Positions 13,848 to 63,790 of a DNA stretch of 64,000 nt are shown here, one piece after another. Numbering within the stretch: the first letter of the stretch is position 1; each line of letters begins with the position of its first letter. Position numbers and translations under genes: made by a program. This DNA comes from Escherichia phage Ecwhy_1: sequence record MH791411.1; one strand, written 5' to 3'. The notes under the pieces are model-generated. The model did not search any database, was not told where the DNA came from, and saw only the letters and a program-made list of their open reading frames with translations.

Positions 13848-13885
13848 GTATTCTCCTAAATGAGTAGTCACTCTAATTAATAAAC

Positions 13886-13913
13886 ATTATATCACATTCT
13901 TTGCGTTTGTCAA
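13886..13913 (-). promoter_or_regulatory. Sigma70-consensus promoter, TTGACA-N16-TGaTATAAT, reading leftward
   Basis: Minus strand reads ccTTGTTGACAaacgcaaagaatgTGaTATAATg: perfect -35, 16-nt spacer, extended -10. Sits about 33 nt upstream of the ClpA ATG. The same 12-mer (cattatatcaca on the + strand) recurs at 43184 and 55526. Confidence 0.7.
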
Positions 13914-13943
13914 CAAGGTAAATAAAGATATACCCGATTTATT

Positions 13944-15452
13944 TTGGAGACAAACATGGCATATAGAATGTGGAAAAAAGGTAGAACCAATGATTACAAG
14001 TTCATTGACTCTGCCATAGCAGAACAATACAACATCGGTGGTGTTGACATGTGGCTTTATGCCTATGTCGGACCAAAACAAGTCGCTGATAACACTGATT
14101 TATCATACGGCGGTGATTATTATGGATCAGATAGTACCGTTGTGTCAAGCATTGGTGATTTAATTTTTGGTGACACTCCAAGTCGTAACTATAATCTCGA
14201 AGCTATCACCTTAAGTTGCGTCTACCAAGTCCAAGAAGCAACTCCTGACTTGAAAATCCCAGGATTGTTCTTCAACTTTAACACTATGGACATCACAATT
14301 CATTATAACACAATGATTCAGCGTTTGGGAAGAAAAATTATGCCAGGTGACGTAATCGAACTTCCTAACTTACGTGATTTTGATGTACTTGGTAAAGATT
14401 CTGGTTTAAACCGCTTCTATGTAGTACAAGATGGGTTTAGAACGTCAGAAGGTTACTCAGTTACATGGCAACATCACATTTACAAACTCCGTGTTAAACC
14501 TCTTACTGATTCACCAGAGTACTCTGACCTTCTAGGTAACAATAACTACCCTGATGACCCAGATGATCCAAACAACGGCAATGGTAATACTGATGATGGC
14601 TCTTCAGAGAACAGCAGCTATGGTAATGAAATGGATATTATGAACCGTATCATTATGCAAGCTGATGATGAAGTACCATACATTCATTTTACTAACGAAC
14701 ACTTGTTCGATGACAGACCAGATACTGTTGATTTGTCTAAGTATATGCTAAATGGATACGAATTACCAGAGGAACCAGCAAATAAAATGTATTTCCTCAA
14801 GAAAACTTACCCAGTACTGAAAGAACTATCTAATGATACATGGATTTCTGTAGAAGTCAAGCGTGGAACAATCTTTCCTCGCAAACCGATGGATGGTGAC
14901 TTCTTCTTTAAAGAAAACGAGGCTGATGTCACTGGCTTCTCATTGTATCAATACGATAAATCTGCCAAAAAGTGGCTAAATTGTGATGTTGAGTATACTA
15001 CAGAAAGCACACCACCACAAGGGGTTGATGATTTTTATATTGAATACAAAGAACCACACATTTATCAGTACTTAAATGGTAAATGGGGAGAACCAGAAGT
15101 AACTTACGTTAATGACCCATTCACTTCTAATAGTGTTTATGGAAATATCGATTCACAACAAGATTATCGTCCTAAGATTCCTCCAGCACGAGGTACAGTT
15201 CCTGAAGGTAATATGTTCCCAAGTGATGCAGTTGATGGTGATTACTACTATCGTACCGATTATACACCAGTAACCCTATGGGAATACAGTGCGTCCAAGA
15301 ATTCTTGGGTGATTTTCGATTACGGTGGTAGAAAACCGTGGGAAGGTGCAGATCTTGCTCTAACAGAATTTGTTAATAGCCCGAACCGTGTACCATTACA
15401 TGATGCAGTTAAACCTAATACAGCGTATCGTATACATAAGGATTCAGAATGA
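13944..15452 (+). CDS. Structural protein, putative tail fibre or receptor-binding component (hypothetical)
   Basis: RBS tTGGAGAcaaacATG. Asn/Asp/Gly-rich linker (NNYPDDPDDPNNGNGNTDDG). Repeated C-terminal modules carrying DGDFFFKEN and DGDYYYRTDY motifs that are also present in the giant ORF and the 654-aa fibre. ATGA-coupled to the next gene. Confidence 0.6.
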   Translation: METNMAYRMWKKGRTNDYKFIDSAIAEQYNIGGVDMWLYAYVGPKQVADNTDLSYGGDYYGSDSTVVSSIGDLIFGDTPSRNYNLEAITLSCVYQVQEATPDLKIPGLFFNFNTMDITIHYNTMIQRLGRKIMPGDVIELPNLRDFDVLGKDSGLNRFYVVQDGFRTSEGYSVTWQHHIYKLRVKPLTDSPEYSDLLGNNNYPDDPDDPNNGNGNTDDGSSENSSYGNEMDIMNRIIMQADDEVPYIHFTNEHLFDDRPDTVDLSKYMLNGYELPEEPANKMYFLKKTYPVLKELSNDTWISVEVKRGTIFPRKPMDGDFFFKENEADVTGFSLYQYDKSAKKWLNCDVEYTTESTPPQGVDDFYIEYKEPHIYQYLNGKWGEPEVTYVNDPFTSNSVYGNIDSQQDYRPKIPPARGTVPEGNMFPSDAVDGDYYYRTDYTPVTLWEYSASKNSWVIFDYGGRKPWEGADLALTEFVNSPNRVPLHDAVKPNTAYRIHKDSE

Positions 15453-26900: not shown

Positions 26901-28892
26901 GCAAAAAATACTGCAATCACTGGTGATTTAGCTGTATCTGGCACACTAACTGCTGGTTCAATCGACCTAAGCAATACTGATGTAACCGTTAAATCTCTTG
27001 ATTCACTAGGTAACGCACACATTGCTGGTAACCTAACTGTAGATGGTGCATTCGACTTAAGTGCAACTAACCTTGTAGCTGCAAGTCTAGCAAGTACTGG
27101 TTCTACTACTGTTGGAACTGATCTAGTACTAACAACTGGTGTTGTGACTGGTAGCCCAGCTATCTCTGGTAATACAACAATCGGTGGAACTCTTGGTGTA
27201 ACTGGTGCTGTTAACCTAACTGATATTGTTAATATCGGTAAGAAAGTAACAGTGAGTACTGGTGGTATTCAGGTAGTTGATGGTGGTATCAATACTAACA
27301 CAATTAACGTTTCTGGTGCTTCTACTCTAGCAGGAACTTCCATTACTGGAACTTTAGGTGTAACTGGTGCTTCTACTCTAGCAGGTGTATCTGCGACATC
27401 ACTAACAGTTTCTGGTGACAGTACTGTTCAGAAACTAACTGTCCAAGGTGAATTGATCCCACAAGGTGGTCTTGACCTAAGCGGTGCAGACATTACTGCT
27501 AATAGTCTAACTACTGCGACAACTATCAATGCAACTGGCCTAAGTACTCTAAGTGGTGGTGTTAGTACTTCTACTGTGACTGCATCTGGTCTAGCAACTG
27601 TTGGAAGTTTAACTTCTACTGCAAACGCATCAGTTGGTGGTAATTTGGGTGTAACTGGAACTCTAGGTGTTACTGGTGCAACTACTGTATCTTCACTAAC
27701 AGCTACTGGTGCAGTGAAAACTGGTACAACCCTAACTGTTGGTACTCCAGTTGGTGAACAACCTGAAACTGTACAGATCATTCCAGATACTTATATTGCT
27801 GGTAAATTGCGTGTAATCGGTGGTATTAACGCTGAAATCGACGTAAGTGGTCAAACACTAGAACCATATGCAATTGAAGCTGCTGCAACACTATCTGCTG
27901 TTGGTAACATTACTTCTGGTGCAACCATCGTTTCTAAAGCTGCAACAATTGGTGATGTTGGTTCACAAAACAACAACCTAACTGTTAATGGTAACGTAGT
28001 AACTAATGGTGACTTCACCGTTACTGGTGTACTAAATGCACAATTGAACCAAGCAGATTCCGATGTAGCTGTTAAGTCTTTGACTGCAACTAATAACGTT
28101 GCGGCTGGTACTTCAATCACTGCTGGAACATCCATCACTGCATCAGGCTTACTAAAAGGTAATTCGTTAGAAGTCACCACTACTGGTTCATTTGGTGGTG
28201 CAGTAACTATGTCAAGTGGTGCAAACATCACTGGTACTGTTGGTATCACTGCTGGTGACCTAACAGTAGGTGGTAATATCTCTGCAACTGGTACTGCTGG
28301 ATTCGGTGCAACAACCGTTTCTACCATTACAACATCAGGTTTAGCTACCCTTGCAAGTGCATCTGTAACTGGTGCTCTAACTGTAGGTGGTACATTAACT
28401 GCAAATGGTAACACTGTGATTGGTGATGCTGCTGCTGATACTTTAACTGTAAATGCAACATCTACATTTAAAGAGAACGCAACATTTGATAAGAACCTAA
28501 CAGTGACTGGTTCTATTAACACCACCACTGCAAACTTCACTACAAACAACATGGTAACTAAGAAATATTCTGTTATCCCTGCTAGTGTTACTGCTTCTAC
28601 TGCTGCTGTAGGTGGCACTTGGACACCAGATGGTACTACTAACGTATATCGCTTAACTCTTGACCAAAGTGTTACAATGGATTCCATCGCGGGTCTAATT
28701 GGTAGTGGTCAAGCATGTTCAGTGTATATCTATGTAACTCCATCTGTTGCTGATACTACTTTCACCTTCGGTGGTGCATACTCTGTAGTTTCTGGTACAG
28801 TAAGTGCTGTAGTTGGTCAAACAAGTATTATCCAAGTAATCTATGATGGTTTCAGTACTGTGTTTGATACCTTCGTTGCACAACGTGTATAA
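23958..28892 (+). CDS. Giant repeat-containing tail fibre protein 1 (1,644 aa)
   Basis: RBS tttggagggaactaaATG. Thr/Gly/Ser/Val/Ala-dominated beta-strand repeats (…TGT.TV.G.LT…). N-terminal, C-terminal and several internal blocks are collinear with the downstream 1,899-aa paralog. All long antisense ORFs here are codon-bias artefacts. Confidence 0.85.
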   Translation: MYSIKTDLDITGGATVAKDLLVKGDAVFNKNLTVNGTVTFADAVFTAIEAETVDISSTLDVAGKASLNGGIEVHGNSVIGNLPVGSDTATINSNAQFQSPVSMAGNLTQTAGTAVLKDTQVASMDVLGTSSFKGNITAETGTTAAFDKITATDATFTNTATTDITSTGTANFKDVNISGTLGGTFSLSDVNATTLTVSGLTSLQGGVTLGSNITGVNSSANFRDIKIGSNAANTNYRLSFNYSAPSLRPTVILQNEIQSELMSPATLSVLKTASFGDSSLSTFGITGNGLNKLDYLTVSGNSVQDPTTPLLQVTSGKTKVHDFEVTGTATIPNIESTGTANFNNINVSGTLGGTFSLDDIEANTLTVSGLTSLVGGVTLGADISGANSTANFKAVSLGQNAADANVKYGFAYSAPGARPTVILQNEIQSELVSPAVLNVQKTATFGDASLATYGITGNGLNKLDYLSITGNGTQSPATPQLQVAGKSVLNDVEFTGTVTGLTVDVSGQDLTPKSVDAAEAIKGQTLESVGQTTVGTNLQVGGTANVVGALTGTAATFTGDVSAAKGTFSGDVSVTGQTVTVRDLVVTGTTTGVTAQADVDGLDIAPNKVDVTTTLSVAGDTTLAGLTASSVTSTGDVTGASVSGNTVTAAGALSGGSLAVTGAGSMASLTVPSITGDTTFANNVTITGTLTPSSIDLSTTDVSAASLTTTGNVTVGGSLAVTGAIDLSAADVVTKSVSATNPSTFGVINASSVAATGDVSGGTLTTTGAAKVGTLTSTGVVSGSRLSSGTATITTSVTVPTLQAEAAGAGTLNLASNVVAAKDLTVTGVFKPEGGLDLTTVDITANSLTTTADVNVGGNLVVDGTFDLSAADVSVKSLASAETITSAGVITVTDSTNTSSLPKITSTDATLFTVNAGTINATGNSVLQSVSATQVTANSAEFSGGGLGLQVDNDANVGGALSVGGIATVGSLTTTAASLNIAKNTAITGDLAVSGTLTAGSIDLSNTDVTVKSLDSLGNAHIAGNLTVDGAFDLSATNLVAASLASTGSTTVGTDLVLTTGVVTGSPAISGNTTIGGTLGVTGAVNLTDIVNIGKKVTVSTGGIQVVDGGINTNTINVSGASTLAGTSITGTLGVTGASTLAGVSATSLTVSGDSTVQKLTVQGELIPQGGLDLSGADITANSLTTATTINATGLSTLSGGVSTSTVTASGLATVGSLTSTANASVGGNLGVTGTLGVTGATTVSSLTATGAVKTGTTLTVGTPVGEQPETVQIIPDTYIAGKLRVIGGINAEIDVSGQTLEPYAIEAAATLSAVGNITSGATIVSKAATIGDVGSQNNNLTVNGNVVTNGDFTVTGVLNAQLNQADSDVAVKSLTATNNVAAGTSITAGTSITASGLLKGNSLEVTTTGSFGGAVTMSSGANITGTVGITAGDLTVGGNISATGTAGFGATTVSTITTSGLATLASASVTGALTVGGTLTANGNTVIGDAAADTLTVNATSTFKENATFDKNLTVTGSINTTTANFTTNNMVTKKYSVIPASVTASTAAVGGTWTPDGTTNVYRLTLDQSVTMDSIAGLIGSGQACSVYIYVTPSVADTTFTFGGAYSVVSGTVSAVVGQTSIIQVIYDGFSTVFDTFVAQRV

Positions 28893-28911
28893 CATTTTAA
28901 ATTAATAATTA

Positions 28912-28944
28912 AAGCCAACTTTTTTAGTTGGCTTTTTCTTTTGT
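28912..28944 (+). terminator. Rho-independent terminator
   Basis: aagccaact-ttttt-agttggctt hairpin followed by TTTTCTTTT after the fibre-1 stop. Confidence 0.75.
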
Positions 28945-28970
28945 ATTAGATAATAGTGTTTTTGTGAATT

Positions 28971-28998
28971 AAACTAAATATAAGTATATTAACAAAAG
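28971..28998 (+). promoter_or_regulatory. Conserved upstream element (putative late promoter) of fibre gene 2
   Basis: Near-identical copy of the 23888-23913 element. Confidence 0.5.
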
Positions 28999-29041
28999 AT
29001 GGGTTATGAATATATAGTTCATCGTTATAGGAGGGGACTCT

Positions 29042-32000
29042 ATGTACTCGATTAAAACGGATCTTGATGTATCTGGTAATTCCACGGTAGGTAAGGATCT
29101 TTTGGTCAAAGGTAATGCAGTATTCAGTAATGACCTAACGGTTAATGGGGAAGTGTCTTTTGCTAACGCAGTATTCACTGCAATTACCGCTGGTTCTGTG
29201 AATGTCACAGGTGCATTGGATGTTGCTGGTAAGGCAACCTTATCCGGTGGTGCTGATGTTTCAGGTGCTGCGACATTTGCAGGAAACATTACTGCTGCTG
29301 GCGGCACAACTGCAAAATTTGATAACTTAGAAGCTAATTCAGGATCATTTGATTCTGTTGAATCAACTGATATTACTTCAACTGGCACAGCAACTTTTAA
29401 AGATGTAAACATTTCTGGTACACTTGGTGGTACTTTTAATCTTTCTGATATTAATGCTACAACACTTAATGTGTCTGGTGCTTCAGCACTAACTGGTTCA
29501 GTCACATTGGGTGCAAATATCACTGGTCTTGCAAGTACTGCAAACTTCCGTGATATTCGTATCGGGCCTAATGAAGCAGGTCAAGCATATAGACTAAACT
29601 TTGGTTACACCGTTCCAGGACAACGACCAACCGTTCTTCTACAGAACGAAGTTCAATCCGAACTAATGTCACCAGCTAAGTTGAATGTTCTACAAACTGC
29701 AACATTTGGTGATTCTTCACTTTCAACTTACGGTATTACAGGTAATGGTTTAAACAAATTAGATTATGTAACTATTTCTGGTAACGCAATTCAATCACCA
29801 ACCACTCCTTTACTTGAAGTAACTAAAGGTAAAACTAAAGTTGTTGATTTAGAAGTAACTGGTGTAGCAACTATTCCTAATATCGAAAGTTCTGGTACTG
29901 CAAACTTTAACAACATCAACGTATCTGGTACTATTGGTGGTAGTTTTGATTTAGATGATATCCAAGCAACAACATTATCAGTATCCGGTGCTTCAGCACT
30001 AACTGGTGCAGTTACATTGGGTGCAAACATCACTGGTCTAGCAAGTACTGCAACATTCAAAGCAATCAATTTGGGTCAAAATACCGCTGATGCTAACGTT
30101 AAGCTAGGTTTTGCATATACTGCACCTAGTGCACGTCCAACAGTCTTGTTAGCAAACGAAGTTCAATCTGAACTAATGTCTCCTGCTAAGTTGAACGTTC
30201 TACAAACTGCAACCTTCGGTTCTGCTGCACTATCTACCTATGGTATTACTGGTAATGGTCTAAACAAATTAGATTATCTAACAATTACTGGTAACGCAAC
30301 ACAAAACCCTGCTACTCCACAACTTCAAGTTGGTGGTAAAGCAATTCTTAATGATGTTGAATTTACAGGTACTGTAACTGGCCTAACTGTTGATGTGAGT
30401 GGACAAGATCTAACTCCTAAATCAGTAGTTGCTGCTGAAGCAATCAAAGGTCAAACTCTTGAATCAGTTGGTCAAACAACTGTAGGTTCATCTCTACAAG
30501 TTGGCGGTACTGCAACTGTTACTGGTGCATTATCTGCTGCCTCTGGTACTTTCAGTGGTGATGTTAGTGGTTCTAAAGGTATCTTCAGTGGTAGCGTATC
30601 CGGTACAAGTGCAACCTTTACTGGGGATGTTAGCGGTGATAACGCAACCTTTAGTGGCGATTTATCTGCTGTAGCTGGCACTTTCAGTGGTGATGTAACC
30701 GTAACTGGTCAAACAATCACTGTTAAAGACTTGGTAGTAACTGGAACTTCAACTGGTGTAACTGCAATCGCTGACGTTGACGGTCTTGATATTGCTCCAA
30801 ACAAAGTTGATGTTACAACAACTCTATCTGTTGCTGGTGAATCAACTCTTGCTGGTATTACAGCAACTTCAATCAATAGTACTGGTGCAATTGCAGGTAC
30901 TGCAATTTCTGGCTCTACTATTACAGCAACTGGTGAAATTTCTGGTGCATCATCTGTAGTAACTGGTCTTTCTAAATCTGGTAGCGTTGAAACTGGTGCT
31001 CTAAAGGCATCTTCTGTTGAAACTGCAATCATTAGCAACACTGCTGGTGTGTCAATAACAAACAACACTTCCATTGCAGGTAATCTATCTGTGACTGGAA
31101 CTGTTACCCCTGGTGCAATTGACCTAAGCACTACTGATATTGATGCTAAGTCCCTAACTACAACTGAAGGTGCTAACATTGGTGGTAACCTAGTTGTTGC
31201 AGGTACAGTTGATCTAAGTGCTGCTGACGTTGCTGTTAAATCTCTAACCAGTACTGGTGCAGTTATTAGTTCTGAAGGTACTGTAAGTAGTGTTCTACCT
31301 AAACTTTCCAGTACTGAAGCTAATATTACCACAGTAACTGCAACCACTGCAAATGCTACCACACTAAATGTAACTGGTACATCAACTCTAGCTGGTGTTA
31401 ACGCTTCTGGTGCTATTACTTCTGCAACTAACATTACCGCTACTGGTGTATTAAAAGGTGCATCTGTTGAAACTGCGTCAATCAGCAATGCTGATGGTGT
31501 AGCAATTAACAATAACACTACAATCACTGGTAATTTGGACGTATCTGGGACATTGACCCCTGGTGCAATTGACCTAAGCACTACTGATATTAGTTCTAAG
31601 TCTCTAACCACAACTGAAGGTGCTACAATTGGTGGCGATCTTGTGGTAGCAGGTACTGTTGACCTAAGTGCTGCTGATGTGTCTGTGAAATCTCTTGCAA
31701 GTGCAGAGACAATTACAAGTGCTGGTGTTATTACAGTTTCGGATACAGTGAATTCTAGCACTCTACCAAAACTAATTACTACTGATGCAACTATTGGTGC
31801 TGTCCATGCAGCTACTATTGAAACAACTGGTTCAAGTACACTAAAACAAGTATCTGCTACTGAAGTAACAGCTACAAGTATTGTACTAAATTCAGTTGGT
31901 GAAGGTTTACGTGTTGACAATAATGCAAACATTAATGGTATATTAAGTGTTAATAATATTACTTCTACCAATGATACTATTGCAATTGCGAAAAGTGCTG

Positions 32001-34741
32001 CTATTACTGGTGATCTGACCGTATCTGGAACTGTTACCCCTGGTGCAATTGACCTAAGTACTACCGATATTAGTTCTAAATCCCTAAGTACTACTGAAGG
32101 TGCTACAATTGGTGGTGACCTAGTTGTTAATGGTTCAATTGATTTAAGTTCTTCCAATGTTTCAGCAATTACCCTTGCTAGTTCTGGTAATACTACCGTT
32201 GGTGGTAACCTAGTACTAACAACTGGTGTTGTAACTGGCAGCCCATCTGTATCTGGCAACCTTTCAGTTGCAGGTACTGCGGCAGTAACTGGTGCAACTA
32301 CCCTAACTGATATCGTAAATATCGGTAAGAAAGTAACTGTAAGCACTGGTGGTATTCAAGTAGTTGCAGGTGGTATTAATACCGACGCTATATTAGTATC
32401 CGGTGATACAACTTTAAACAACACTACTGTAAACACTACCTTAAATGTAACTGGTCAAAGTACAGTAGCTGCACTAAGTGCTGCATCTTTGAATGTATCT
32501 GGTGATAGTACTGTTCAAAAACTAACAGTTGAAGGTGAATTGGTTCCACAAGGTGGTATCGACCTAACTGGTGCAGATATTTCTGCTAATAGTCTTGCAA
32601 CTGCTTCAACAATCACTGCAACTGGACTAAGCACACTAAGTGGTGGTGTAAGTACTACTAATGTTACTGCATCTGGTACAGTGAATGCTGGTAGTTTGGA
32701 TGTTACTAACAACGCAACCGTTGGTGGTAATTTGGGTGTAACTGGTTCATTAACTTCTGGTCCATTGAGTGTAACAGGTATTGCGAATATTACTGGTGTA
32801 ACAACTGTTGGTTCATTGGTTTCCGGTGCAGTATCTGGTAGTACTGGTACATTTAGTTCAACATTAGGTGTAACTGGTGCAGCTACATTTGACAATGACG
32901 TAACTGTTGAAGGTGTATTCACCCCAGCAGGTGGTTTAGACCTAACAACTTCTGATATTACGGCTAAGAGTTTGTCAGTATCTGAAACTATTCACTCTGA
33001 TGGTGCAGCTTCCTTTGGTGGTAACACAACAGTAGGTGGTACATTGGGTGTAACTGGTGCAGTAACTGCTCCATCGGCAACCCTAAGTGGTACTGGTACT
33101 GCACTAGCAGTAACTAATAATGCAACTATTGGTGGTACATTAGGTGTAACTGGTCAAGCATCACTTGGTTCTATAGTAACTTCTGGCGTTTCTGCAACAA
33201 GTGGCTCTTTCAGTACTACTCTTGGCGTTACTGGTGCTGCGACATTTGGTAACGATGTAACTGTAGTTGGAACACTAACTCCTGGTAGCTTAGATCTAAC
33301 TGGTGCAGATATCTCTGCTAAAACACTAACTCTATCTGAAACATTAAATGCAACAGGTAATACTACCCTTGGTGGAACATTAGGTGTAACTGGTTTAGCA
33401 ACAATTGGTGGAACACTAACGTCTGGTGCAGTAACTGCTCCATCTGCAACCTTGAATGGTTCAGGTACTGGTCTAGCAGTAACTAACAACGCAACCGTTG
33501 GTGGAACATTAGGTGTAGTTGGTCAAACAACACTAGGTTCTGTTAAAACTGGTGCAACTCTAACAGTTGGTACACCATTAGGTGAGCAGCCTGAAACTGT
33601 ACAGATTATGCCAGACACTTATATTGCTGGTAAACTACGTGTTGAAGGTGGTATTAACGCAGATATCGATGTTGGTGGACAAACACTAGAACCGTTTGCA
33701 GTAATAGCATCTGATTCTTTATCTTCTGCTGGTAATATTACTGCTGGTGCAGCAATTATTTCAAGTTCTGCAACAATTGGTGAAGTCGGTTCACAAAACA
33801 ACAACCTAATCGTTAATGGTAACGTTGTAAACAACGGTAACTTCACTGTTACTGGTGTACTAAATGCACAATTGAACCAAGCAGATTCCGATGTAGCTGT
33901 TAAGTCTTTGACTGCAACTAACAACGTATCTGCTGGAACCACATTAAGTGCAGGTACTGCAATTACTGCTGGTACTTCCATCACTGCAACTGGATTACTT
34001 AAAGGTAATACTTTAGAAGTTACTACTACTGGTTCATTTGGTGGTTTAGTAACTATGTCAAGTGGTGCAAATATCACTGGTGCAATGACCACTGCGGGTA
34101 ACATAACAGTGGGTGGCAATATCACTGCAACTGGTACTGCTGGATTCGCTGCAACAACCGTTTCTACAATTACAACAACAGGTTTGGCTACAATTGCAAG
34201 TGCATCCATTACTGGTAACGCAACAGTAGGTGGAACACTAACTGCGAATGGTAACGTAACATTAGGTGACGCAGCGGCAGACGTTCTAACCGTTAATGCA
34301 ACTTCATCATTTAAAGAAAATGCTGTGTTTGATAAGGCAGTAACAGTAACTGGTGCACTAACCACTACTAATGCTAACTTAACTACTACAACAGTAACTA
34401 CCAAAAAGTATGATGTAATCCCAACTCAAGTTACATCATCAGTAATTGCTCCAACCGGAACATGGACTCCAGATGGTACAAGTAACGTATACTTCATCAC
34501 TCTAGACCAAGATACCACGTTGGCTCCAATTACTGGCCTAATTGGTGGTGGTAAAGCTGCATCAGTATACATCTATGTTAAACAAGATACAACTGGTAAC
34601 AGAAACTTTACAACTGATGGTACTTATGCTGTTGTTGATGGTGAACTAAACAAAACTGCTGGTAGTGTGACCATTTACCAAGTAATTTATGATGGTGTAA
34701 GTCCAGTTACTGATTTGTTCATTGCACAACGTACTGCTTAA
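29042..34741 (+). CDS. Giant repeat-containing tail fibre protein 2 (1,899 aa), paralog of fibre 1
   Basis: RBS ataggaggggactctATG. Same N-terminus (MYSIKTDLD...) and C-terminus (…IYQVIYDG.S.V.D.F.AQR) as fibre 1. Carries three internal repeats of about 470 bp (31090, 31545, 32025) encoding SGTLTPGAIDLSTTDI.SKSLTTTEGATIGGDLVVAGTVDLSAADV.VKSL. Confidence 0.85.
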   Translation: MYSIKTDLDVSGNSTVGKDLLVKGNAVFSNDLTVNGEVSFANAVFTAITAGSVNVTGALDVAGKATLSGGADVSGAATFAGNITAAGGTTAKFDNLEANSGSFDSVESTDITSTGTATFKDVNISGTLGGTFNLSDINATTLNVSGASALTGSVTLGANITGLASTANFRDIRIGPNEAGQAYRLNFGYTVPGQRPTVLLQNEVQSELMSPAKLNVLQTATFGDSSLSTYGITGNGLNKLDYVTISGNAIQSPTTPLLEVTKGKTKVVDLEVTGVATIPNIESSGTANFNNINVSGTIGGSFDLDDIQATTLSVSGASALTGAVTLGANITGLASTATFKAINLGQNTADANVKLGFAYTAPSARPTVLLANEVQSELMSPAKLNVLQTATFGSAALSTYGITGNGLNKLDYLTITGNATQNPATPQLQVGGKAILNDVEFTGTVTGLTVDVSGQDLTPKSVVAAEAIKGQTLESVGQTTVGSSLQVGGTATVTGALSAASGTFSGDVSGSKGIFSGSVSGTSATFTGDVSGDNATFSGDLSAVAGTFSGDVTVTGQTITVKDLVVTGTSTGVTAIADVDGLDIAPNKVDVTTTLSVAGESTLAGITATSINSTGAIAGTAISGSTITATGEISGASSVVTGLSKSGSVETGALKASSVETAIISNTAGVSITNNTSIAGNLSVTGTVTPGAIDLSTTDIDAKSLTTTEGANIGGNLVVAGTVDLSAADVAVKSLTSTGAVISSEGTVSSVLPKLSSTEANITTVTATTANATTLNVTGTSTLAGVNASGAITSATNITATGVLKGASVETASISNADGVAINNNTTITGNLDVSGTLTPGAIDLSTTDISSKSLTTTEGATIGGDLVVAGTVDLSAADVSVKSLASAETITSAGVITVSDTVNSSTLPKLITTDATIGAVHAATIETTGSSTLKQVSATEVTATSIVLNSVGEGLRVDNNANINGILSVNNITSTNDTIAIAKSAAITGDLTVSGTVTPGAIDLSTTDISSKSLSTTEGATIGGDLVVNGSIDLSSSNVSAITLASSGNTTVGGNLVLTTGVVTGSPSVSGNLSVAGTAAVTGATTLTDIVNIGKKVTVSTGGIQVVAGGINTDAILVSGDTTLNNTTVNTTLNVTGQSTVAALSAASLNVSGDSTVQKLTVEGELVPQGGIDLTGADISANSLATASTITATGLSTLSGGVSTTNVTASGTVNAGSLDVTNNATVGGNLGVTGSLTSGPLSVTGIANITGVTTVGSLVSGAVSGSTGTFSSTLGVTGAATFDNDVTVEGVFTPAGGLDLTTSDITAKSLSVSETIHSDGAASFGGNTTVGGTLGVTGAVTAPSATLSGTGTALAVTNNATIGGTLGVTGQASLGSIVTSGVSATSGSFSTTLGVTGAATFGNDVTVVGTLTPGSLDLTGADISAKTLTLSETLNATGNTTLGGTLGVTGLATIGGTLTSGAVTAPSATLNGSGTGLAVTNNATVGGTLGVVGQTTLGSVKTGATLTVGTPLGEQPETVQIMPDTYIAGKLRVEGGINADIDVGGQTLEPFAVIASDSLSSAGNITAGAAIISSSATIGEVGSQNNNLIVNGNVVNNGNFTVTGVLNAQLNQADSDVAVKSLTATNNVSAGTTLSAGTAITAGTSITATGLLKGNTLEVTTTGSFGGLVTMSSGANITGAMTTAGNITVGGNITATGTAGFAATTVSTITTTGLATIASASITGNATVGGTLTANGNVTLGDAAADVLTVNATSSFKENAVFDKAVTVTGALTTTNANLTTTTVTTKKYDVIPTQVTSSVIAPTGTWTPDGTSNVYFITLDQDTTLAPITGLIGGGKAASVYIYVKQDTTGNRNFTTDGTYAVVDGELNKTAGSVTIYQVIYDGVSPVTDLFIAQRTA

Positions 34742-40119: not shown

Positions 40120-40140
40120 ATATAATTATATCACCTTTTT
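40120..40140 (-). promoter_or_regulatory. Extended -10 promoter (TGaTATAAT) for the leftward DprA-like/thyA operon
   Basis: Minus strand reads aaaaaggTGaTATAATtatatttgtaacaacatacATG. No good -35, but the TGn extension is present. Located just downstream of the VWA-gene terminator. Confidence 0.5.
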
Positions 40141-40156
40141 CCAAGCTGTCCCGCTG

Positions 40157-40187
40157 AAAAAAGTAGAGAACGGAATTTTCCGTTCTC
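40157..40187 (-). terminator. Rho-independent terminator (minus strand)
   Basis: gagaacgg-aatttt-ccgttctc, 8-bp perfect stem. On the minus strand it is followed by TTTTTT; placed after the VWA/metallopeptidase gene stop at 40200. Confidence 0.75.
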
Positions 40188-41632: not shown

Positions 41633-41660
41633 ATAAAAGAAGGATACCATGTGGTATCCT
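41633..41660 (-). terminator. Intergenic hairpin/partial terminator between the MoxR and VWA genes
   Basis: aggatacca-tg-tggtatcct inverted repeat. On the minus strand it is followed by TCTTTTAT. Lies in the 75-nt gap between the MoxR stop (41685) and the VWA start (41609). Confidence 0.45.
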
Positions 41661-41684
41661 CCTTGTCAACACTCTTTTTAATTA

Positions 41685-43013: not shown

Positions 43014-43053
43014 GTATATTTTCCTTTTGTTGGATAAAATCGTTTAGGTTTCT

Positions 43054-43082
43054 ATTATAGCCAATCCGTGGGCAAAAGTAAA
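43054..43082 (-). promoter_or_regulatory. Proximal promoter P3 (TTTACT-N17-TATAAT) for the MoxR gene
   Basis: Minus strand reads cTTTACTtttgcccacggattggcTATAATagaaacc, about 40 nt upstream of the MoxR ATG. Confidence 0.4.
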
Positions 43083-43120
43083 GGAACTGTGTTAAAAGAA
43101 TTTTTAACTTATCAGTTCCT
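43081..43120 (-). promoter_or_regulatory. 5'-leader stem-loop
   Basis: ggaactg-(23 nt)-cagttcc inverted repeat in the leader transcribed from the upstream tandem promoters. Confidence 0.3.
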
Positions 43121-43178
43121 TTGTTACTTCATGAATCATCCGTGTATTTAAAAAGGCATTTCTCTTTGCCGTCTTGAT

Positions 43179-43222
43179 GTGGTCATTATATCACATCGTT
43201 CAGGCTTGTCAACAACTTTTTT
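43179..43222 (-). promoter_or_regulatory. Tandem promoter copy 1: TTGACA-N16-TGaTATAAT (minus strand)
   Basis: + strand gtggtcATTATAtcacatcgttcaggctTGTCAAcaactttttt. Reverse complement gives a perfect -35 and an extended -10 with 16-nt spacer. Confidence 0.7.
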
Positions 43223-43269
43223 ATTTCTTTTTCAATCTCACATCTTGTGATTTTGAAAACTTGCTTCGT

Positions 43270-43315
43270 GGTGGTCATTATAACACATCATTCGGCGTTG
43301 TCAACATCTTTTTTT
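43270..43315 (-). promoter_or_regulatory. Tandem promoter copy 2: TTGACA-N16-TGtTATAAT (minus strand)
   Basis: + strand gtggtcATTATAacacatcattcggcgtTGTCAAcatcttttttt. A direct repeat about 91 bp from copy 1 with the same architecture. Confidence 0.7.
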
Positions 43316-43329
43316 CTTTATTTTCGAAG

Positions 43330-55525: not shown

Positions 55526-55537
55526 CATTATATCACA
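55526..55537 (-). promoter_or_regulatory. Extended -10 promoter element TGtGATATAAT (third exact copy of the cattatatcaca 12-mer)
   Basis: Exact 12-mer cattatatcaca on the + strand. No TTGACA at -35 because the terminator hairpin sits there. 28 nt upstream of the 92-aa gene ATG. Confidence 0.45.
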
Positions 55538-55540
55538 ACA

Positions 55541-55570
55541 TATAAAAAAAGACCCCATATAGGAGTCTTT
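55541..55570. terminator. Bidirectional terminator
   Basis: AAAAAAA-gacccc-atat-aggagtc-TTTTTTTT (imperfect stem) after the 263-aa gene. Confidence 0.55.
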
Positions 55571-55578
55571 TTTTTGTT

Positions 55579-56370
55579 TTATCCGATAATCATTCCAAGT
55601 GGGTCACCACCATCTTTGTATCTCTTCAACTGTTCTTTAAGCTGTTCTTGAAGTTGTGCACCTTCATTACGTAATGTATCACCATCCATAGAGAATGTAC
55701 CCTGTGGTCCAGGCAATGTAGCAAATTTAGCACGGTTGCGACCCAACATAATCATAGCTTCAGACAATGCCCAGTCACGTAGCCAAGGATAGCTTTGTTG
55801 ACGTTGGAATAGCAATGGTTCAGGTATATTATGATATACATGTAATAGCACTTCTTCAGTACCGCGAATATCACGATCAATTATTAGTTTTTTGGTCATT
55901 GGGTTGAACTGGAAGATGATTTCTCTACCAAACATACGCCCAACTAATTCTTGGAATTGAAAACTAAAATCATAAGTAGTTAAGTCATAACCACCAGCGT
56001 TACGTGCAGACGTTAAAAGGTAAGTGTTGGTAAATGCGAGTGAAAAAGGGTCTACTGAGTTACCACTACCAGAACTTAGATAACCGTTACCATAACGATA
56101 AATCTGTTTGACAATTTCAACTTCAGTAGGAAGCATGTATACAGATTGTGAATCATAGAATTTCATGTTCAAGAATGCTTCTTCTTTTGAAGCAGAACTC
56201 CATGCTCGGTAGTTTGATACCGCATTATCAATTGCAATTTCCAATTGACCATCAGTAATTTCAACTTCAACTGCACCAGCACCTAACATTTGAGTGATAA
56301 CATCTTTCAGTTTTTCACGATGATCAAAGTTTGGAGCATCTGGGTTTCCACCCATATAATCGTAAGACAT
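55579..56370 (-). CDS. Hypothetical protein (263 aa), possibly virion or neck associated
   Basis: Likely start is the ATG at 56370 (aatGAGGTGcttttttATG); the ORF-track start is 5 codons upstream, inside the SD. Confidence 0.5.
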   Translation of the reverse strand: MSYDYMGGNPDAPNFDHREKLKDVITQMLGAGAVEVEITDGQLEIAIDNAVSNYRAWSSASKEEAFLNMKFYDSQSVYMLPTEVEIVKQIYRYGNGYLSSGSGNSVDPFSLAFTNTYLLTSARNAGGYDLTTYDFSFQFQELVGRMFGREIIFQFNPMTKKLIIDRDIRGTEEVLLHVYHNIPEPLLFQRQQSYPWLRDWALSEAMIMLGRNRAKFATLPGPQGTFSMDGDTLRNEGAQLQEQLKEQLKRYKDGGDPLGMIIG

Positions 56371-56420
56371 AAAAAAGCACCTCATTAATGTTTATATACA
56401 TTATTTAGAGGTGCTAATAG

Positions 56421-56639
56421 TTATTTGGAATTATACAAGCAATACAAGTATACCATAGGAGCAAAATGTTCGGTATCAACTAAGTATATTAACTGGGTGT
56501 CATATATACCGTACAAATCTCGAAATTTATCTCTGTACAGCAACAATGACTTATTGTTGTGTGGGTCAACCCAGTACTTTAAGTCATTGTAGTGCAACGT
56601 GTTATTACGGTAACCTGATAATATTTGTTTTTTAGCCAA
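56421..56639 (-). CDS. Hypothetical protein (72 aa)
   Basis: ORF whose start overlaps the stop of the 125-aa gene by 8 nt. Confidence 0.4.
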   Translation of the reverse strand: MAKKQILSGYRNNTLHYNDLKYWVDPHNNKSLLLYRDKFRDLYGIYDTQLIYLVDTEHFAPMVYLYCLYNSK

Positions 56640-57009
56640 CTTTTTTACAATTACTTAGTAAATGCATGATGGCATCAGCGGTAAATGGTCCCAGTACTAA
56701 AACTTCTTCTCCATTACCGAAGATACTCAATGGTACAGATTGTTGTCCTGCTAGATATTCGATTTGTTCTAATTCGAAAATGTCATCAGCAGCATAAACA
56801 ACCTGTTCCATTTCATTATCTTTAATCCATGACTGCCAATGTTCTTTAAACTGCTTCGCTTCGTATTCCAGTACATAGTTAGGTGATTCTGGATTGTACT
56901 GATGTAGCATTGTCATACCAGCCATAACCAGTTCTTTTGGTGATGGAGTAGAATCTTTCAGTACTACGATAGCTTGGATAGTTTTAACTTTAACGTTTTG
57001 AGCAGCCAT
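56632..57009 (-). CDS. Hypothetical protein (125 aa); weak resemblance to Pth2-type peptidyl-tRNA hydrolase
   Basis: Segments KTIQAIVVLKDS… and …EEVLVLGPFTADAIMHLLSNCK resemble the start and the C-terminal …IGLGP…KITGKYKLL of Pth2 proteins. Judged by eye only. Confidence 0.3.
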   Translation of the reverse strand: MAAQNVKVKTIQAIVVLKDSTPSPKELVMAGMTMLHQYNPESPNYVLEYEAKQFKEHWQSWIKDNEMEQVVYAADDIFELEQIEYLAGQQSVPLSIFGNGEEVLVLGPFTADAIMHLLSNCKKVG

Positions 57010-57021
57010 TAGATACCTCTA

Positions 57022-57339
57022 TTATAGAATGATTTTGTTATCAGGAACAATCAGTGCTGGTTTTTCTTCGATAGCCTTGATTGCTTCAACATAAGCTTCA
57101 ACTAGTGCAGGGTTTGCATCGCTGATGCTAATGATGTTGGATTTATAAAAAATAACGCCTTTTTCAGAACTAATGAATTCTAGATAATCACGTAGAATGA
57201 TTTCACCTTGTTCGTCAGTACCTAGCTGTGCTGGGTAGTTAACTACTACTGCTTCTGGTGCATCATTTTGTAGAATTGCTAGTACTGGGCCAACGCTGTT
57301 GATGTTTAGTAGTTTAACGGTCATAGTCATTTTTGTCAA
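57022..57339 (-). CDS. Hypothetical protein (105 aa)
   Basis: ORF 12 nt upstream of the 125-aa gene. Confidence 0.45.
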   Translation of the reverse strand: MTKMTMTVKLLNINSVGPVLAILQNDAPEAVVVNYPAQLGTDEQGEIILRDYLEFISSEKGVIFYKSNIISISDANPALVEAYVEAIKAIEEKPALIVPDNKIIL

Positions 57340-57349
57340 GTCCTTTTGT

Positions 57350-57829
57350 TTATTTTAGAATGTATAAGTGTTTTTCTGCATTAACCAGTCTGTGGTCAAT
57401 GATTTCTTTGATAACGTTCCAGTTACCACCGCCTAAATCGGCTCCAATTTTCGGGAAGTGTACATGGATCTCTTGTGGTTCATTTTTAATGAATTCATTC
57501 ATCGAGTTAAATGCAAGGTCAATCGCATCATAACTTACATACTTCTTACCATCATTACCATAATACTCTTGTGTAATGCAGTTTGCAATAATTAAGTTAT
57601 TATTTGGTGCTGCATAGACAACTTCACCCAATTTCAAACCATTCTGATTGGTATAACGTGTATGATACACATCATATGCCAATTGGTGACGCTTTCTTAA
57701 TTCTTTTGCAAAACCAGAACCCATCTTACCCTGAGCGTTACAACCATGAGCGATAATATGTAATGCAGTTTGATCAGTAGTAACAGTACTGAATAAATCA
57801 AACAGATTACCACAATGTTCATGTATCAT
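57350..57829 (-). CDS. Macro-domain protein (ADP-ribose binding or processing)
   Basis: HIIAHGCNAQGKMGSGFAKEL matches the macro-domain core (…H.CN…G.MG.GIA…); about 160 aa is typical of a stand-alone macro domain. Confidence 0.6.
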   Translation of the reverse strand: MIHEHCGNLFDLFSTVTTDQTALHIIAHGCNAQGKMGSGFAKELRKRHQLAYDVYHTRYTNQNGLKLGEVVYAAPNNNLIIANCITQEYYGNDGKKYVSYDAIDLAFNSMNEFIKNEPQEIHVHFPKIGADLGGGNWNVIKEIIDHRLVNAEKHLYILK

Positions 57830-57848
57830 TATATTCTCCGAAAAGAAA

Positions 57849-57870
57849 GGACTCTGTAATCAGAGTCCTT
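57849..57870 (-). terminator. Rho-independent terminator (minus strand)
   Basis: aggactctg-taat-cagagtcct, 9-bp stem. The minus-strand T-rich run comes from + gaaaagaaag. Confidence 0.65.
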
Positions 57871-57880
57871 AATTTATATT

Positions 57881-58138
57881 TTATTCTTCTTCACCGAATC
57901 GAATTTTTTTCAATTCTTTTCGTTGTTTGCGAGCAATGGTACTTTTGTGAAGTCTATTACCACGTTTTGTGTCTTTCGTAATGTACCATGAATCTTCTGG
58001 TGCATTATAATCACAATAACCATCTTCTGTAATCGTCCCTAAGAAAGCAGACTTTTTAGGAATGGATGTTTGAGCTTTAGCAGCGAATTGGCCTTTTGCT
58101 AATTGTTCACGAAAACTGAGCATAATAGTATCTCCCAA
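57881..58138 (-). CDS. Hypothetical basic protein (85 aa)
   Basis: Lys/Arg-rich C-terminus. Confidence 0.45.
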   Translation of the reverse strand: MGDTIMLSFREQLAKGQFAAKAQTSIPKKSAFLGTITEDGYCDYNAPEDSWYITKDTKRGNRLHKSTIARKQRKELKKIRFGEEE

Positions 58139-58168
58139 ATTGTTACGAAGAACTTGTGTTCTTCATTA

Positions 58169-58411
58169 TTATTTAGGGTTGCTCGAAACCTCTACTGAAG
58201 CGATGAATGCCAAAATATCATCTTTACTGAAAGCTTCAATAATATAAGCAACCGCTTTATCGTACTGTTCTTTCTTAGTAGTGTATTCTTTCATTTTGTG
58301 AATTTTACGTTGTGCTTTAACTTTTGCAGCTTCCATATCAGGCATTTTAAATTCAACACCCAATGTGTCAGCTAAATGTTTTGCACGAGATGATACTTTA
58401 TCAATATTCAT
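58169..58411 (-). CDS. Hypothetical protein (80 aa)
   Basis: ORF whose stop overlaps the glutaredoxin gene start by 1 nt. Confidence 0.45.
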   Translation of the reverse strand: MNIDKVSSRAKHLADTLGVEFKMPDMEAAKVKAQRKIHKMKEYTTKKEQYDKAVAYIIEAFSKDDILAFIASVEVSSNPK

Positions 58412-58659
58412 TAATTCCAGCGACCTTCTTTAAGACCTTCAACGAAACCAGTACAGCCACCTGGAACGTAAACATCGTTTACGAAAATTTGTGGAACCTG
58501 TCGTACTGGCTCACCACATAGTTCAGATAGTTTAGCACCATCAATACCAGCGGTAACAATATCGATAAACTCCATATCAAATTTGTTATTTTCACATACT
58601 GCTTTAGCAGTGTCGCAGAATTTACAACCAGTAGTGCGACCATAAATTTTAACTTTCAT
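58411..58659 (-). CDS. nrdC: Glutaredoxin/NrdH-like thioredoxin-fold protein (T4 NrdC-like)
   Basis: MKVKIYGRTTGCKFCDTAK has the CxxC active site inside the beta-alpha-beta start of a thioredoxin fold. Overall size and layout resemble T4 NrdC (KVYGYDSNIHKCVYCDNAK). Confidence 0.7.
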   Translation of the reverse strand: MKVKIYGRTTGCKFCDTAKAVCENNKFDMEFIDIVTAGIDGAKLSELCGEPVRQVPQIFVNDVYVPGGCTGFVEGLKEGRWN

Positions 58660-59062
58660 TTCTTTTCCCTTTATTTCGTTGAAACATTGTAACAGCCTTT
58701 ATTATACTGTTACACATTCGTTCAGTCAAATACTTTTGACAATCTAGTACATCAATGTACATGAACTTATCCAATTCTGGGTGACTTCTACCATATCTGT
58801 TTGTGTAAGTACTTTTACACTCCAACTCTTCTGGTATAGGCTTATCTTTGGCTGTATAGAAAAATAAAACTAAACGTTTCCCCTTTCTATACGATACATC
58901 ACCAAGAAACAGAAGATCATCTTCATCGATTTCATATCCTGTCTCTTCGTAGCATTCACGTACAGCAGCCTCTTTAAATGTTTCTGTACCTTCAGTTTTA
59001 CCTTTAGGTAAGTCCCAGTGATTCTGTCCGTGTTGTATGCCCGATAAGTATCTGACCATCAC
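58649..59062 (-). CDS. Nudix hydrolase (second copy)
   Basis: Nudix box LPKGKTEGTETFKEAAVRECYEETGYEI (GX5EX7REUXEEXGU). Confidence 0.75.
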   Translation of the reverse strand: MMVRYLSGIQHGQNHWDLPKGKTEGTETFKEAAVRECYEETGYEIDEDDLLFLGDVSYRKGKRLVLFFYTAKDKPIPEELECKSTYTNRYGRSHPELDKFMYIDVLDCQKYLTERMCNSIIKAVTMFQRNKGKRNES

Positions 59063-59168
59063 GATAAAATATTATACCACAGCTATAACGCATAATCTTA
59101 TCTCTTTATCATCAAGTGATGTTCAGATACTAGTAATTATATCAGAAGATGTTAACTTGTCCCAGCTT

Positions 59169-60284
59169 TTAGAACATTTGCTTGATTGCTTCAATACGCA
59201 ATTCAGCAACAAAATCACGAATCTCCGATGTTTGGAGTTCACCATCTTTCACTAACTGCTGAATATCAGGTAATTCAACATCAGTATAACGATCATAAAC
59301 TTTAATAATCAAATCTTCAAGTTCAGAATCAATTTCTTTGTTCAAAATGAAGTTTTCCAGTACTTTGTAAAGGAAATCTTCACCACCATTGTTTTTGATA
59401 TTCATATCCAGTAAGATTTGTCCCATTTCAACTGGGGTCTTCTTACGGAAGGTTTTAATATCTTCACGGAAACGCTTGATGTAATTACTAAACTTAACGT
59501 ACTTAACTGGAACCTTAATGGAACCGTTAAGTACTGAATCATTATTTACTTCTTCATTTTCAAGAAGTACTGTCCATAAGAAATATGGTTTATATTCTTC
59601 TGTACAATTTGCAGCGATAGAATCAATTAATTCCAGACGTTTCTTGGTAACTGGAACTGTAGTAAATGCCTTTTCGTAATAACCAAATTGTACCAGAGTT
59701 TTGATAAACTTGGAAGGGTTTTCTTCAGAAAGTGCTTTTTCGAATTCAACAAAAACACGATCTGGAACTAGATGGTCTAGTTCACCAGTACTAACCATAT
59801 CTTTACACATTGTCATAGTATCATCATGGATTGTAAAGTCGGAGTAACGCGTAGCGAAACGGGCCAAACGTAGAACACGCAATGGATCTTCTTTAAAGTG
59901 TTCTGATACATGACGAAGTACTTTGTTCTTGATATCAGCTTTCCCGCCATAAGGGTCGATGTGAATCTGGAGTACTGGATCATATGCAATACTATTGATT
60001 GTGAGATCACGACGATATAGATCTTGTTCTAGTGTCACACCTTTTGTATTCACTTCGAAGCCACCATATCCAGTACCAGTTTTACGCTCAGTACGGGCTA
60101 ATGCGTGTTCATTACCTTCTGGACTTAGATATACAGGGAAATCCTTACCTACTTGCTTGTATCCAATACTTTGCAAGTATTTAATATCGGATTCGGTAGC
60201 ACCGACAATAACATAATCTTTGTCTTTTGCACGGATACCCATTAAACGGTCACGAACGTAGCCACCAACCAAATACTTTTTCAT
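59169..60284 (-). CDS. cca: CCA-adding tRNA nucleotidyltransferase (class II, head/neck/body only)
   Basis: MKKYLVGGYVRDRLMGIRAKDKDYV, GYKQVGKDFPVYLSPEGNEHALARTERKTGTGYGGF, RRDLTINSIAYD and EDPLRVLRLARFATRY are collinear with the E. coli CCA N-terminal half. No HD domain. Confidence 0.85.
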   Translation of the reverse strand: MKKYLVGGYVRDRLMGIRAKDKDYVIVGATESDIKYLQSIGYKQVGKDFPVYLSPEGNEHALARTERKTGTGYGGFEVNTKGVTLEQDLYRRDLTINSIAYDPVLQIHIDPYGGKADIKNKVLRHVSEHFKEDPLRVLRLARFATRYSDFTIHDDTMTMCKDMVSTGELDHLVPDRVFVEFEKALSEENPSKFIKTLVQFGYYEKAFTTVPVTKKRLELIDSIAANCTEEYKPYFLWTVLLENEEVNNDSVLNGSIKVPVKYVKFSNYIKRFREDIKTFRKKTPVEMGQILLDMNIKNNGGEDFLYKVLENFILNKEIDSELEDLIIKVYDRYTDVELPDIQQLVKDGELQTSEIRDFVAELRIEAIKQMF

Positions 60285-60285
60285 A

Positions 60286-60408: not shown

Positions 60409-60419
60409 AATGCCTCCAA

Positions 60420-63762: not shown

Positions 63763-63790
63763 AGTATAGCATACTTTTTAGTTATATCAA
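63763..63790 (-). promoter_or_regulatory. Candidate sigma70 promoter TTGATA-N16-TATACT for the lysin gene
   Basis: Minus strand reads TTGATAtaactaaaaagtatgcTATACT, about 115 nt upstream of the lysin start. Confidence 0.35.

Follow-up and report, generated by a model that had tools for sequence, protein, structure and literature searches.

In the extended -10 promoters of Escherichia coli, the TGn element is assigned to region 3 of sigma-70 and positions -12/-11 to region 2.4, with the bases at -17/-16 also influencing transcription; TGn makes up for a poor -35 element, and a TRTG -16 motif occurs in Gram-positive sigma-A promoters (PMC2613000). The early promoters of phage T4 are built from UP, -35, TGn and -10 elements (PMC2988021), and T4-like phages furthermore carry PeSLs, composite cassettes of a terminator and an early promoter (PMC2839356, PMC4122927). 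For the Rak2-like phages CBB and GAP32, one report predicts both RpoD-like promoters, with UP elements in CBB, and 'divergent RpoD-like' promoters with a TGAAACG -35 (PMC5259590). A report on the related phage PA5oct places TTGAC/TATAATA promoters at transcription start sites and describes growth as rifampicin-sensitive and dependent on the host polymerase (PMC7318152). Literature searches for Asteriusvirus turned up neither a transcriptome nor a study of its promoters, and the RaK2 and fEgEco12 papers make no mention of promoters.

Here we analyse a window of 64,000 nucleotides from Escherichia phage Ecwhy_1 (MH791411.1), the whole stretch of DNA under study, in which a preliminary description had noticed a 12-mer, TGTGATATAATG, recurring in front of minus-strand genes. 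A 6-kb stretch is 99.5% identical to fEgEco12, EC.P1 and WPEC3 (~350-385 kb) and ~84% identical to G17, phAPEC6 and Sharanji; the records of G17 and of a further relative, TH47, are classified as Asteriusvirus. With E. coli as host, the polymerase to consider is the E. coli sigma-70 holoenzyme. We find that the 12-mer is probably the downstream half of host-type sigma-70 extended -10 promoters in this Asteriusvirus-type jumbo coliphage.

Copies of the 12-mer and their distance to genes

A motif search of the window re-found every site of the preliminary description: the exact TGTGATATAATG at 13885-13896, 43184-43195 and 55526-55537, a one-mismatch copy (TGTGTTATAATG) at 43276-43287 and the shorter TGATATAAT version at 40125-40133, all on the minus strand. 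The earlier list of near-copies was incomplete, lacking a second TGTGTTATAATG copy at 14301-14312, also on the minus strand. Matches with at most one mismatch to the 12-mer number 5 in the window against 1.02 expected, a count reached in 0/100 dinucleotide shuffles, and base composition predicts 0.03 exact copies per window. The sites and the putative elements around them are the following.

13885-13896, minus strand: promoter of the ClpA/B-like gene; TGTGA 13892-13896, TATAAT 13886-13891, G-6 at 13885
13908-13913, minus strand: -35 element TTGACA of the 13885 promoter, with a 16-nt spacer
14301..14312, minus strand: one-mismatch copy in a plus-strand ORF; the -35 position reads CCCAAA
40125..40152, minus strand: weaker, class-B promoter; GGGACA 40147-40152, GGTGA 40131-40135, TATAAT 40125-40130
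40166-40187, minus strand: terminator-like hairpin just before the 40125 promoter; an annotated terminator in G17
43184..43230, minus strand: P2, promoter of the MoxR-like ATPase gene, with the exact 12-mer, TTGACA and a UP-like tract; A-rich UP-like tract 43213-43230, TTGACA 43207-43212, TGTGA 43191-43195, TATAAT 43185-43190, G 43184
43276..43322, minus strand: P1, the one-mismatch copy before the MoxR-like ATPase gene, a tandem duplicate of P2; UP-like A-tract 43305-43322, TTGACA 43299-43304, TGTGT 43283-43287, TATAAT 43277-43282, then G
55526..55537, minus strand: exact 12-mer without a -35; TGn/-10-type promoter for the 92-aa ORF and the dNMP kinase gene
55544-55574, minus strand: terminator-like hairpin and T-run directly upstream of the 55526 promoter
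59136..59163, minus strand: additional member of the promoter class, GGGACA-N11-TCTGA-TATAAT before a nudix hydrolase gene; GGGACA at 59158-59163
63763..63790, minus strand: weaker member, TTGATA-N11-TATGC-TATACT, before a lysozyme gene

The preliminary description had placed each copy immediately upstream of a minus-strand gene. This is the case at 13885, with 38 nt to the ATG (13847) of the ClpA/B-like gene, at 55526, with 27 nt to the ATG (55499) of the 92-aa ORF that is followed by the dNMP kinase gene, and at 40125, with ~35 nt to a 76-aa ORF heading a string of SLOG (DUF2493) and thymidylate synthase genes. It is not the case at 43184 and 43276, where 171 and 263 nt, including a structured leader, separate the copies from the start of the MoxR-like ATPase gene. 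The 14301 copy, which was not on the earlier list, is antisense to a plus-strand ORF and lies within it. The gene labels themselves stand: the ClpA/B-like protein has two AAA domains (Pfam AAA_2, AAA, ClpB_D2-small), the MoxR-like ATPase has a weak AAA match in Pfam, and the 92-aa ORF before the dNMP kinase gene and the SLOG-family gene with thymidylate synthase are likewise confirmed.

We considered the 14301 copy as an antisense promoter and rejected it: it has no -35 element, lies within an ORF, and its counterpart in a 121Q-type relative, TGTATTATAAT, is without the TG. Given that loss, the copy is best taken as most likely a chance match outside the promoter system.

Promoter elements at the individual sites

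On the minus strand the 12-mer reads T(-17) G(-16) T(-15) G(-14) A(-13), TATAAT (-12 to -7) and G(-6), and resolves fully into sigma-70 elements: a TGn/TRTG extended -10, TATAAT and G-6. A perfect TATAAT is found at all five sites of the preliminary description, and TG stands at -15/-14 in every one, within TGTGA, TGTGT or GGTGA. The -35 regions among the sites are TTGACA, GGGACA or GGTCTT. A perfect TTGACA lies 16 nt before the hexamer at 13885, 43184 and 43276, with A-rich UP-like tracts at the latter two; the UP/-35/TGn/-10 layout is complete at these two, nearly so at 13885, and absent from 55526 and 40125. P2 has the highest PWM score in the window (32.5).

A sigma-70 pattern scan over 20 kb gave 12/12 matches only at 43184 and 43276, both with TG, and a generic scan at 9/12 matches returned the chance level (66 hits vs 65.9 in shuffles). 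Loose promoter matching is therefore uninformative here, and only the sites with 12/12 matches plus TG stand out.

With TTGACA together with TGn/-10, and UP-like tracts at 43184 and 43276, the three TTGACA sites can be described as 'uber' promoters of the kind seen among T4 early promoters. All four elements are shared with those promoters (PMC2988021) at 43184/43276, and most of them at 13885. The likeness extends to the downstream genes, which are of the pre-replicative type (nucleotide metabolism, chaperones). It differs in the -35, which in T4 early promoters is a variant other than TTGACA and here is TTGACA itself. Reliance on the host RNA polymerase also appears to be common to both, the related PA5oct being rifampicin-sensitive (PMC7318152). 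Such sites would supply very strong and compact natural promoters.

The 55526 and 40125 sites are arranged differently. The 12-mer at 55526 begins 6 nt downstream of the hairpin at 55544-55574, and the promoter at 40125, with the 76-aa ORF and the SLOG (DUF2493) and thymidylate synthase genes downstream, also follows a hairpin directly. Both sites resemble PeSLs in composition, with a stem-loop terminator ahead of a sigma-70 promoter close to consensus and then an SD/start codon, and near-identical cassettes are repeated elsewhere in the genome; unlike PeSLs, 13885 and 43184/43276 have no upstream stem-loop. This phage is Rak2-like, a jumbo phage that we take to lie outside the T4-like subfamily. 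Elsewhere in the window, a 12-bp terminator hairpin upstream of an HNH endonuclease gene (41637-41669, minus strand) overlaps a TTGACA-N17-TATCCT match with TG, which may represent one more terminator/promoter composite or a chance overlap.

Conservation among relatives and occurrence in other viruses

The 12-mer is identical in 121Q/G17-type relatives (~84% DNA identity) at the ClpA/B-like, MoxR P2 and 92-aa loci, while the spacers diverge; the -35 of the ClpA/B-like gene in the 121Q-type relative reads TAGACA instead of TTGACA. At the 40125 ortholog in G17, GGGACA and TGATATAAT are kept, with -17/-16 changed from GG to TA. P1 drifts in relatives, reading TGTGATATAATG in TH47 and TGTGATACAATA in G17. 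Upstream of the MoxR gene, TG[AG]TATAAT is kept in all 18 Rak2-like loci compared, and TGnTATAAT in 19/19 MoxR loci, down to 54% protein identity, and the -35-like box differs by clade (TTGACA, GGGACA or TGAAACG) around this constant TGnTATAAT. ClpA-like relatives outside Asteriusvirus have a different upstream context and for this reason yield no footprint. Together, these comparisons support purifying selection on the 12-mer promoters. The earlier reading of the copies as promoters is borne out by their shared orientation, their position upstream of minus-strand non-structural genes and the retention of the 12-mer while the spacers diverge.

The composite GACA-N11-TGTGATATAATG is present in at least 120 unrelated viral contigs of IMG/VR, ranging from 4 to 517 kb, with 26-55% GC at the loci fetched. 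Among the matches listed, the two bases before GACA, which the pattern left unspecified, complete TTGACA in 116/121, and A is enriched at the expected +1. Such a spread over unrelated contigs indicates a generic bacterial-type consensus promoter and not a phage signature, contrary to the earlier designation of the 12-mer as phage-specific.

A predicted promoter class across the TH47 genome

TH47 (352 kb, 98.7% identical) has a record without annotation; a simple greedy ORF procedure called 613 genes in it, of which 87% are encoded on the minus strand. The preliminary description had proposed a genome-wide motif search, and this was carried out on TH47. The exact 12-mer was found 7 times vs 0.15 expected, a ~45-fold enrichment, and all 7 copies lie on the gene strand, 28-266 nt before start codons. 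For GACA-N16-TATAAT (n = 42), 31/42 occurrences lie in intergenic DNA, which makes up 11% of the genome. An iterated PWM converged on 57 sites, every one on the minus strand, which is the gene strand there; most are intergenic and stand 20-170 nt before start codons. Plus-strand blocks contain no PWM site (chance probability 4e-4), and the plus-strand block that falls in the window holds structural (tail-fibre) genes. An equal frequency in coding regions with no relation to gene starts, which the preliminary description had named as counter-evidence, was not what we observed: copies are gene-strand (57/57), mostly near starts and enriched between genes.

The PWM consensus consists of an A-tract (-44 to -39), KKGACA (-34 to -29), N11, T-17 R-16 T-15 G-14, TATAAT and G-6, and the 11-nt remainder of the spacer carries no information. 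Among the 57 sites, -16 is A in 27, G in 29 and T in 0, G occupies -6 in 32/57, and -13 is not T. The 42 seed sites, whose flanks were not selected for, agree, with a purine at -16 in 39/42 and T at -13 in 1/42, and anchoring on TATAAT alone also brings out the -35, TG and A-tract signals in TH47. The exact 12-mer makes up 6 of the 57 sites, vs 2.2 expected under independence of positions. By the PWM analysis, the 12-mer is not a discrete word; it represents the consensus extreme of a family of degenerate promoters. The spacing between -35 and -10 in TH47 is mostly 16 nt (N16 42 times vs N17 14 times), N15 and N18 also being much rarer.

The first two -35 bases of the 57 sites are GG in 19, GA in 11 and TT in 19, and most TGn-anchored sites read YKGRGACA. 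The presence of TGn depends strongly on the -35: it is found in 32/38 sites with a non-TT -35 vs 5/19 TTGACA sites (Fisher p = 2.8e-5). The G[GA]GACA subclass is nearly always followed by nRTG[AC]-TATAAT and is dispersed over TH47. As 'hybrids' with a perfect -35 plus TGn, 13885, 43184 and 43276 match the full consensus.

The TTGACA subclass mostly has TACTG-TATAAT without TGn, and its sites cluster in two TH47 regions, 92-106 kb and 128-164 kb, ahead of small ORFs. A conserved tACATCAAGG follows the promoters of this subclass, and is also present after P2 at ~43172-43179. Six near-identical terminator-plus-promoter cassettes, GGTTGACTTCGGTCAGCCCTTTTTGCTATAAT, lie at TH47 122858, 124305, 125693, 127278, 131331 and 138449; their hairpin is closed by a TTCG loop, with a TTGACT -35 contained in the 5' arm. 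By analogy, these resemble PeSL-like mobile regulatory cassettes.

Could the recurrence be a by-product of duplication, or chance in an AT-rich genome, with no selection on each copy? P1/P2 are indeed a tandem duplication of ~45 bp, promoter cassettes elsewhere in the genome repeat each other almost exactly, and the 14301 copy is in-ORF and not conserved. Against this, the flanks of 13885, 43184 and 55526 are mutually unrelated, the enrichment holds genome-wide, the TH47 copies are all sense-oriented and intergenic, and the 12-mer is kept in relatives while its surroundings diverge. Conservation and orientation statistics largely refute duplication or chance, to which we assign a next to negligible probability.

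Genes behind the TH47 sites include homing endonucleases, ClpP-like and GroES-like genes and genes without assigned function. The 'regulon of early auxiliary genes' of the preliminary description applies only loosely, as a promoter class before non-structural genes, the genes downstream of the ~57 sites being very diverse. The result is a predicted promoter map, UP/KKGACA/N11/TRTGn/TATAAT/G with ~57 sites per genome, for almost unannotated jumbo coliphages of ~350-385 kb.

In comparing the two genomes, we observed that ~5 kb within two long tail-fibre genes (1644 and 1899 aa; 28394-33526) is lacking or collapsed in the TH47 record, and that 55572-61930 is 87-93% identical to TH47, the remainder of the window being ~98% identical.

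Probable recognition by the host sigma-70 holoenzyme, and alternatives

From established knowledge of sigma factors, we infer that sigma-70 reads the promoters. TATAAT would be the -10 hexamer, read by sigma-70 region 2, and the TG at -15/-14 the extended -10, read by region 3; T-17 and R-16 would form a 'TRTG' flank tuning promoter strength, and G-6 would mark the start of the discriminator. Unmodified host holoenzyme would then fire the promoters from the start of infection and so drive non-structural genes, encoding the ClpA/B-like chaperone, the MoxR-like ATPase, the dNMP kinase and thymidylate synthase. At 55526 and 40125, TGn would offset a -35 that is missing or weak, immediately behind a terminator, in PeSL-like fashion.

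The preliminary description had argued that conservation beyond TATAAT indicates selection for more than sigma-70 contact. We do not find this, as every conserved base of the 12-mer falls at a known sigma-70 position, the spacer is unconserved and TGn is anticorrelated with a good -35. That anticorrelation is the classical sigma-70 compensation, in line with the statement on TGn in PMC2613000. The TG one base before TATAAT, the T-17, the purine at -16 and the compensation by TGn of a weak or missing -35, at 55526 and 40125 as well as genome-wide, are all shared with E. coli extended -10 promoters. Differences are the spacer of mostly 16 nt, the near-absence of T at -13 and a -17/-16 preference that, in a phage of a Gram-negative host, is as strong as in Firmicutes (purine in 39/42). 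No new regulatory principle emerges, the bases beyond TATAAT being those of a textbook extended -10, and the 12-mer can be explained with no factor specific to the phage.

Several observations sit less easily with sigma-70 alone: the dominant spacer is 16 nt and not the 17-nt E. coli optimum, most TGn sites have G in preference to T as the opening two bases of the -35, the box differs by clade (TGAAAC, GRGACA, TTGACA), and the exact 12-mer is somewhat in excess (6 vs 2.2 expected). The hosts of the compared clades presumably share the same sigma-70. Together with the G preference, the clade-specific -35 box suggests that the -35 region may to some extent be read in a phage-specific way. A phage activator, or a T4 MotA/AsiA-style sigma appropriation, might read a box on the -35 side, GRGACA here and TGAAAC(G) in CBB-like relatives, leaving only TGnTATAAT to the host sigma-70; the promoters would then be of 'middle' type, and the 12-mer sites with TTGACA dual early/middle promoters. 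The G dominance at -34/-33, the YKGRGACA of most TGn sites and the change of the orthologous MoxR box from clade to clade (TGAAACG, GGGACA, TTGACA) around a constant TGnTATAAT all fit such a factor. T4 middle promoters likewise pair a phage box with a sigma-70 -10, TGn being present as well in roughly half of them (PMC2988021). The second promoter class described for CBB, with its TGAAACG -35, stands before DNA-synthesis genes (PMC5259590).

On the other hand, GRGACA still matches TTGACA at 4/6 positions and is correctly spaced, the TGn/-35 compensation would be expected from sigma-70 by itself, and the three main sites have no need of an activator because their TTGACA is perfect. None of the sites has a MotA box (TGCTT core) at -30, where TTGACA, GGGACA or GGTCTT stand, and the genome-wide box is KKGACA. 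The activator would moreover bear on the -35 box and not on the 12-mer. Overall, we regard activation of this kind as rather unlikely. A broader version, in which the 12-mer is the host-read half of a two-part promoter whose -35 box is read by a phage activator or remodelled sigma, and in which, separately, 43184/43276 drive a conserved structured RNA controlling the MoxR-like gene, also has a low probability.

The phages CBB, GAP32 and PA5oct belong to the same phage group and also show two classes, TTGACA with UP vs a variant -35 with a TATA -10. The variant box of Asteriusvirus is GRGACA, unlike the TGAAACG of CBB/GAP32, and the orthologous MoxR promoter carries TGAAACG in the CBB-like clade and TTGACA in this phage. 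The TGn/TRTG extension and the compensation pattern are not mentioned in the available excerpts of PMC5259590 and PMC7318152.

Recognition of the 12-mer promoters by a sigma-70-family factor of the phage itself, a homolog of fEgEco12 g519, was also considered. The g519 protein (322 aa) has Pfam Sigma70_r2 and Sigma70_r3 matches, its best PDB matches are group 1/2 sigmas, and region 3 is the TGn-reading domain in sigma-70. We take W433/W434, Q437, T440, H455 and E458 (E. coli numbering) as the residues that read -12 and TGn. In the HMMER alignment of g519 to primary sigmas, YATWWIRQAITR...IRIPVHMIE becomes YATTTVYMTIYN...VHFPRYMSV, and every one of these determinants is replaced (WW to TT, Q437 to M, T440 to Y, H455 to Y, E458 to V), which makes g519 an unlikely reader of TGnTATAAT. 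The promoters equal the host consensus perfectly and show no distinct motif, and the composite is used by many unrelated phages (at least 120 contigs). The fEgEco12 paper, furthermore, puts this factor among the products completely absent from Ecwhy_1 (PMC13070987). A phage sigma as reader was rejected on the residue substitutions, and we consider it highly improbable. The C-terminal region of g519 is divergent.

Separately, a 110-aa protein (62362-62694, minus strand) corresponds to a 'putative sigma 54' in the fEgEco12 annotation. This label was rejected: the protein is a Ribosomal_S30AE/hibernation-promoting-factor homolog (Pfam E = 7e-11), by sequence a ribosome hibernation factor irrelevant to these promoters.

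The leader of the MoxR-like gene

Between P1/P2 and the MoxR-like gene, the following elements are predicted.

43014..43183, minus strand: structured leader or small RNA candidate downstream of P1/P2
43113-43122 with 43080-43089, minus strand: leader hairpin 1, 10 bp, followed by a U-run (terminator-like)
43060-43073, minus strand: leader hairpin 2, 5 bp, with an invariant GGA loop
43054-43059, minus strand: -10 of a possible third promoter, TTTACT-N17-TATAAT

The 170-nt region from P2 to the MoxR start is conserved above the genome-wide average, and the order of stop codon, promoter, terminator and gene is conserved down to 54% protein identity. An alignment of 15 distinct sequences (14 related loci plus the window) has 88% of cells paired, with 7/15 pairs changing on both sides. 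The covariation score is 0.265 vs 0.10 in shuffles (0/500), slid controls reach at most 0.14, and the window leader folds with z = -2.9. Scans of the whole window with Rfam (gathering thresholds) and for tRNAs returned nothing, and with no Rfam match the leader is unexplained by a known RNA family. The conserved promoter-terminator-gene order suggests a small RNA or an attenuator-type leader. Among the by-products of the analysis, this promoter-then-terminator leader and the clade-specific -35-like box are the two with potential for novelty.

The leader also has UUAAGA and AUGGA motifs upstream, and in several loci a variable mini-ORF from a conserved AUG enters the 5' arm of the hairpin. In the window, ACACGGAUGA of the leader resembles what we take to be the CsrA SELEX consensus.

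Timing and late-type motifs

In front of the window's structural genes (tail sheath, tail tube, fibres, neck) stand ATAAATA-like motifs instead of the 12-mer promoter. These late motifs, together with the functions of the genes downstream of the 12-mer sites, support placing the promoters in a pre-late class, and we infer that they act early. The promoter model would separate non-structural transcription units from structural ones with late-type ATAAATA motifs.

ATAAATA-/TAAATA-like motifs were noted upstream of 1524, 13955, 19532, 23958, 29042 and 35679, and also of 50654, 51430, 51734, 54481 and 56371. The exact T4-type TATAAATA does not occur in the window; the ATAAATA-like motifs resemble this T4 late motif and the CBB late motif (PMC5259590). 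The divergent intergenic region at 13872-13954 combines the two types, with a sigma-70-type promoter on the minus strand and an ATAAATA-like motif on the plus strand.
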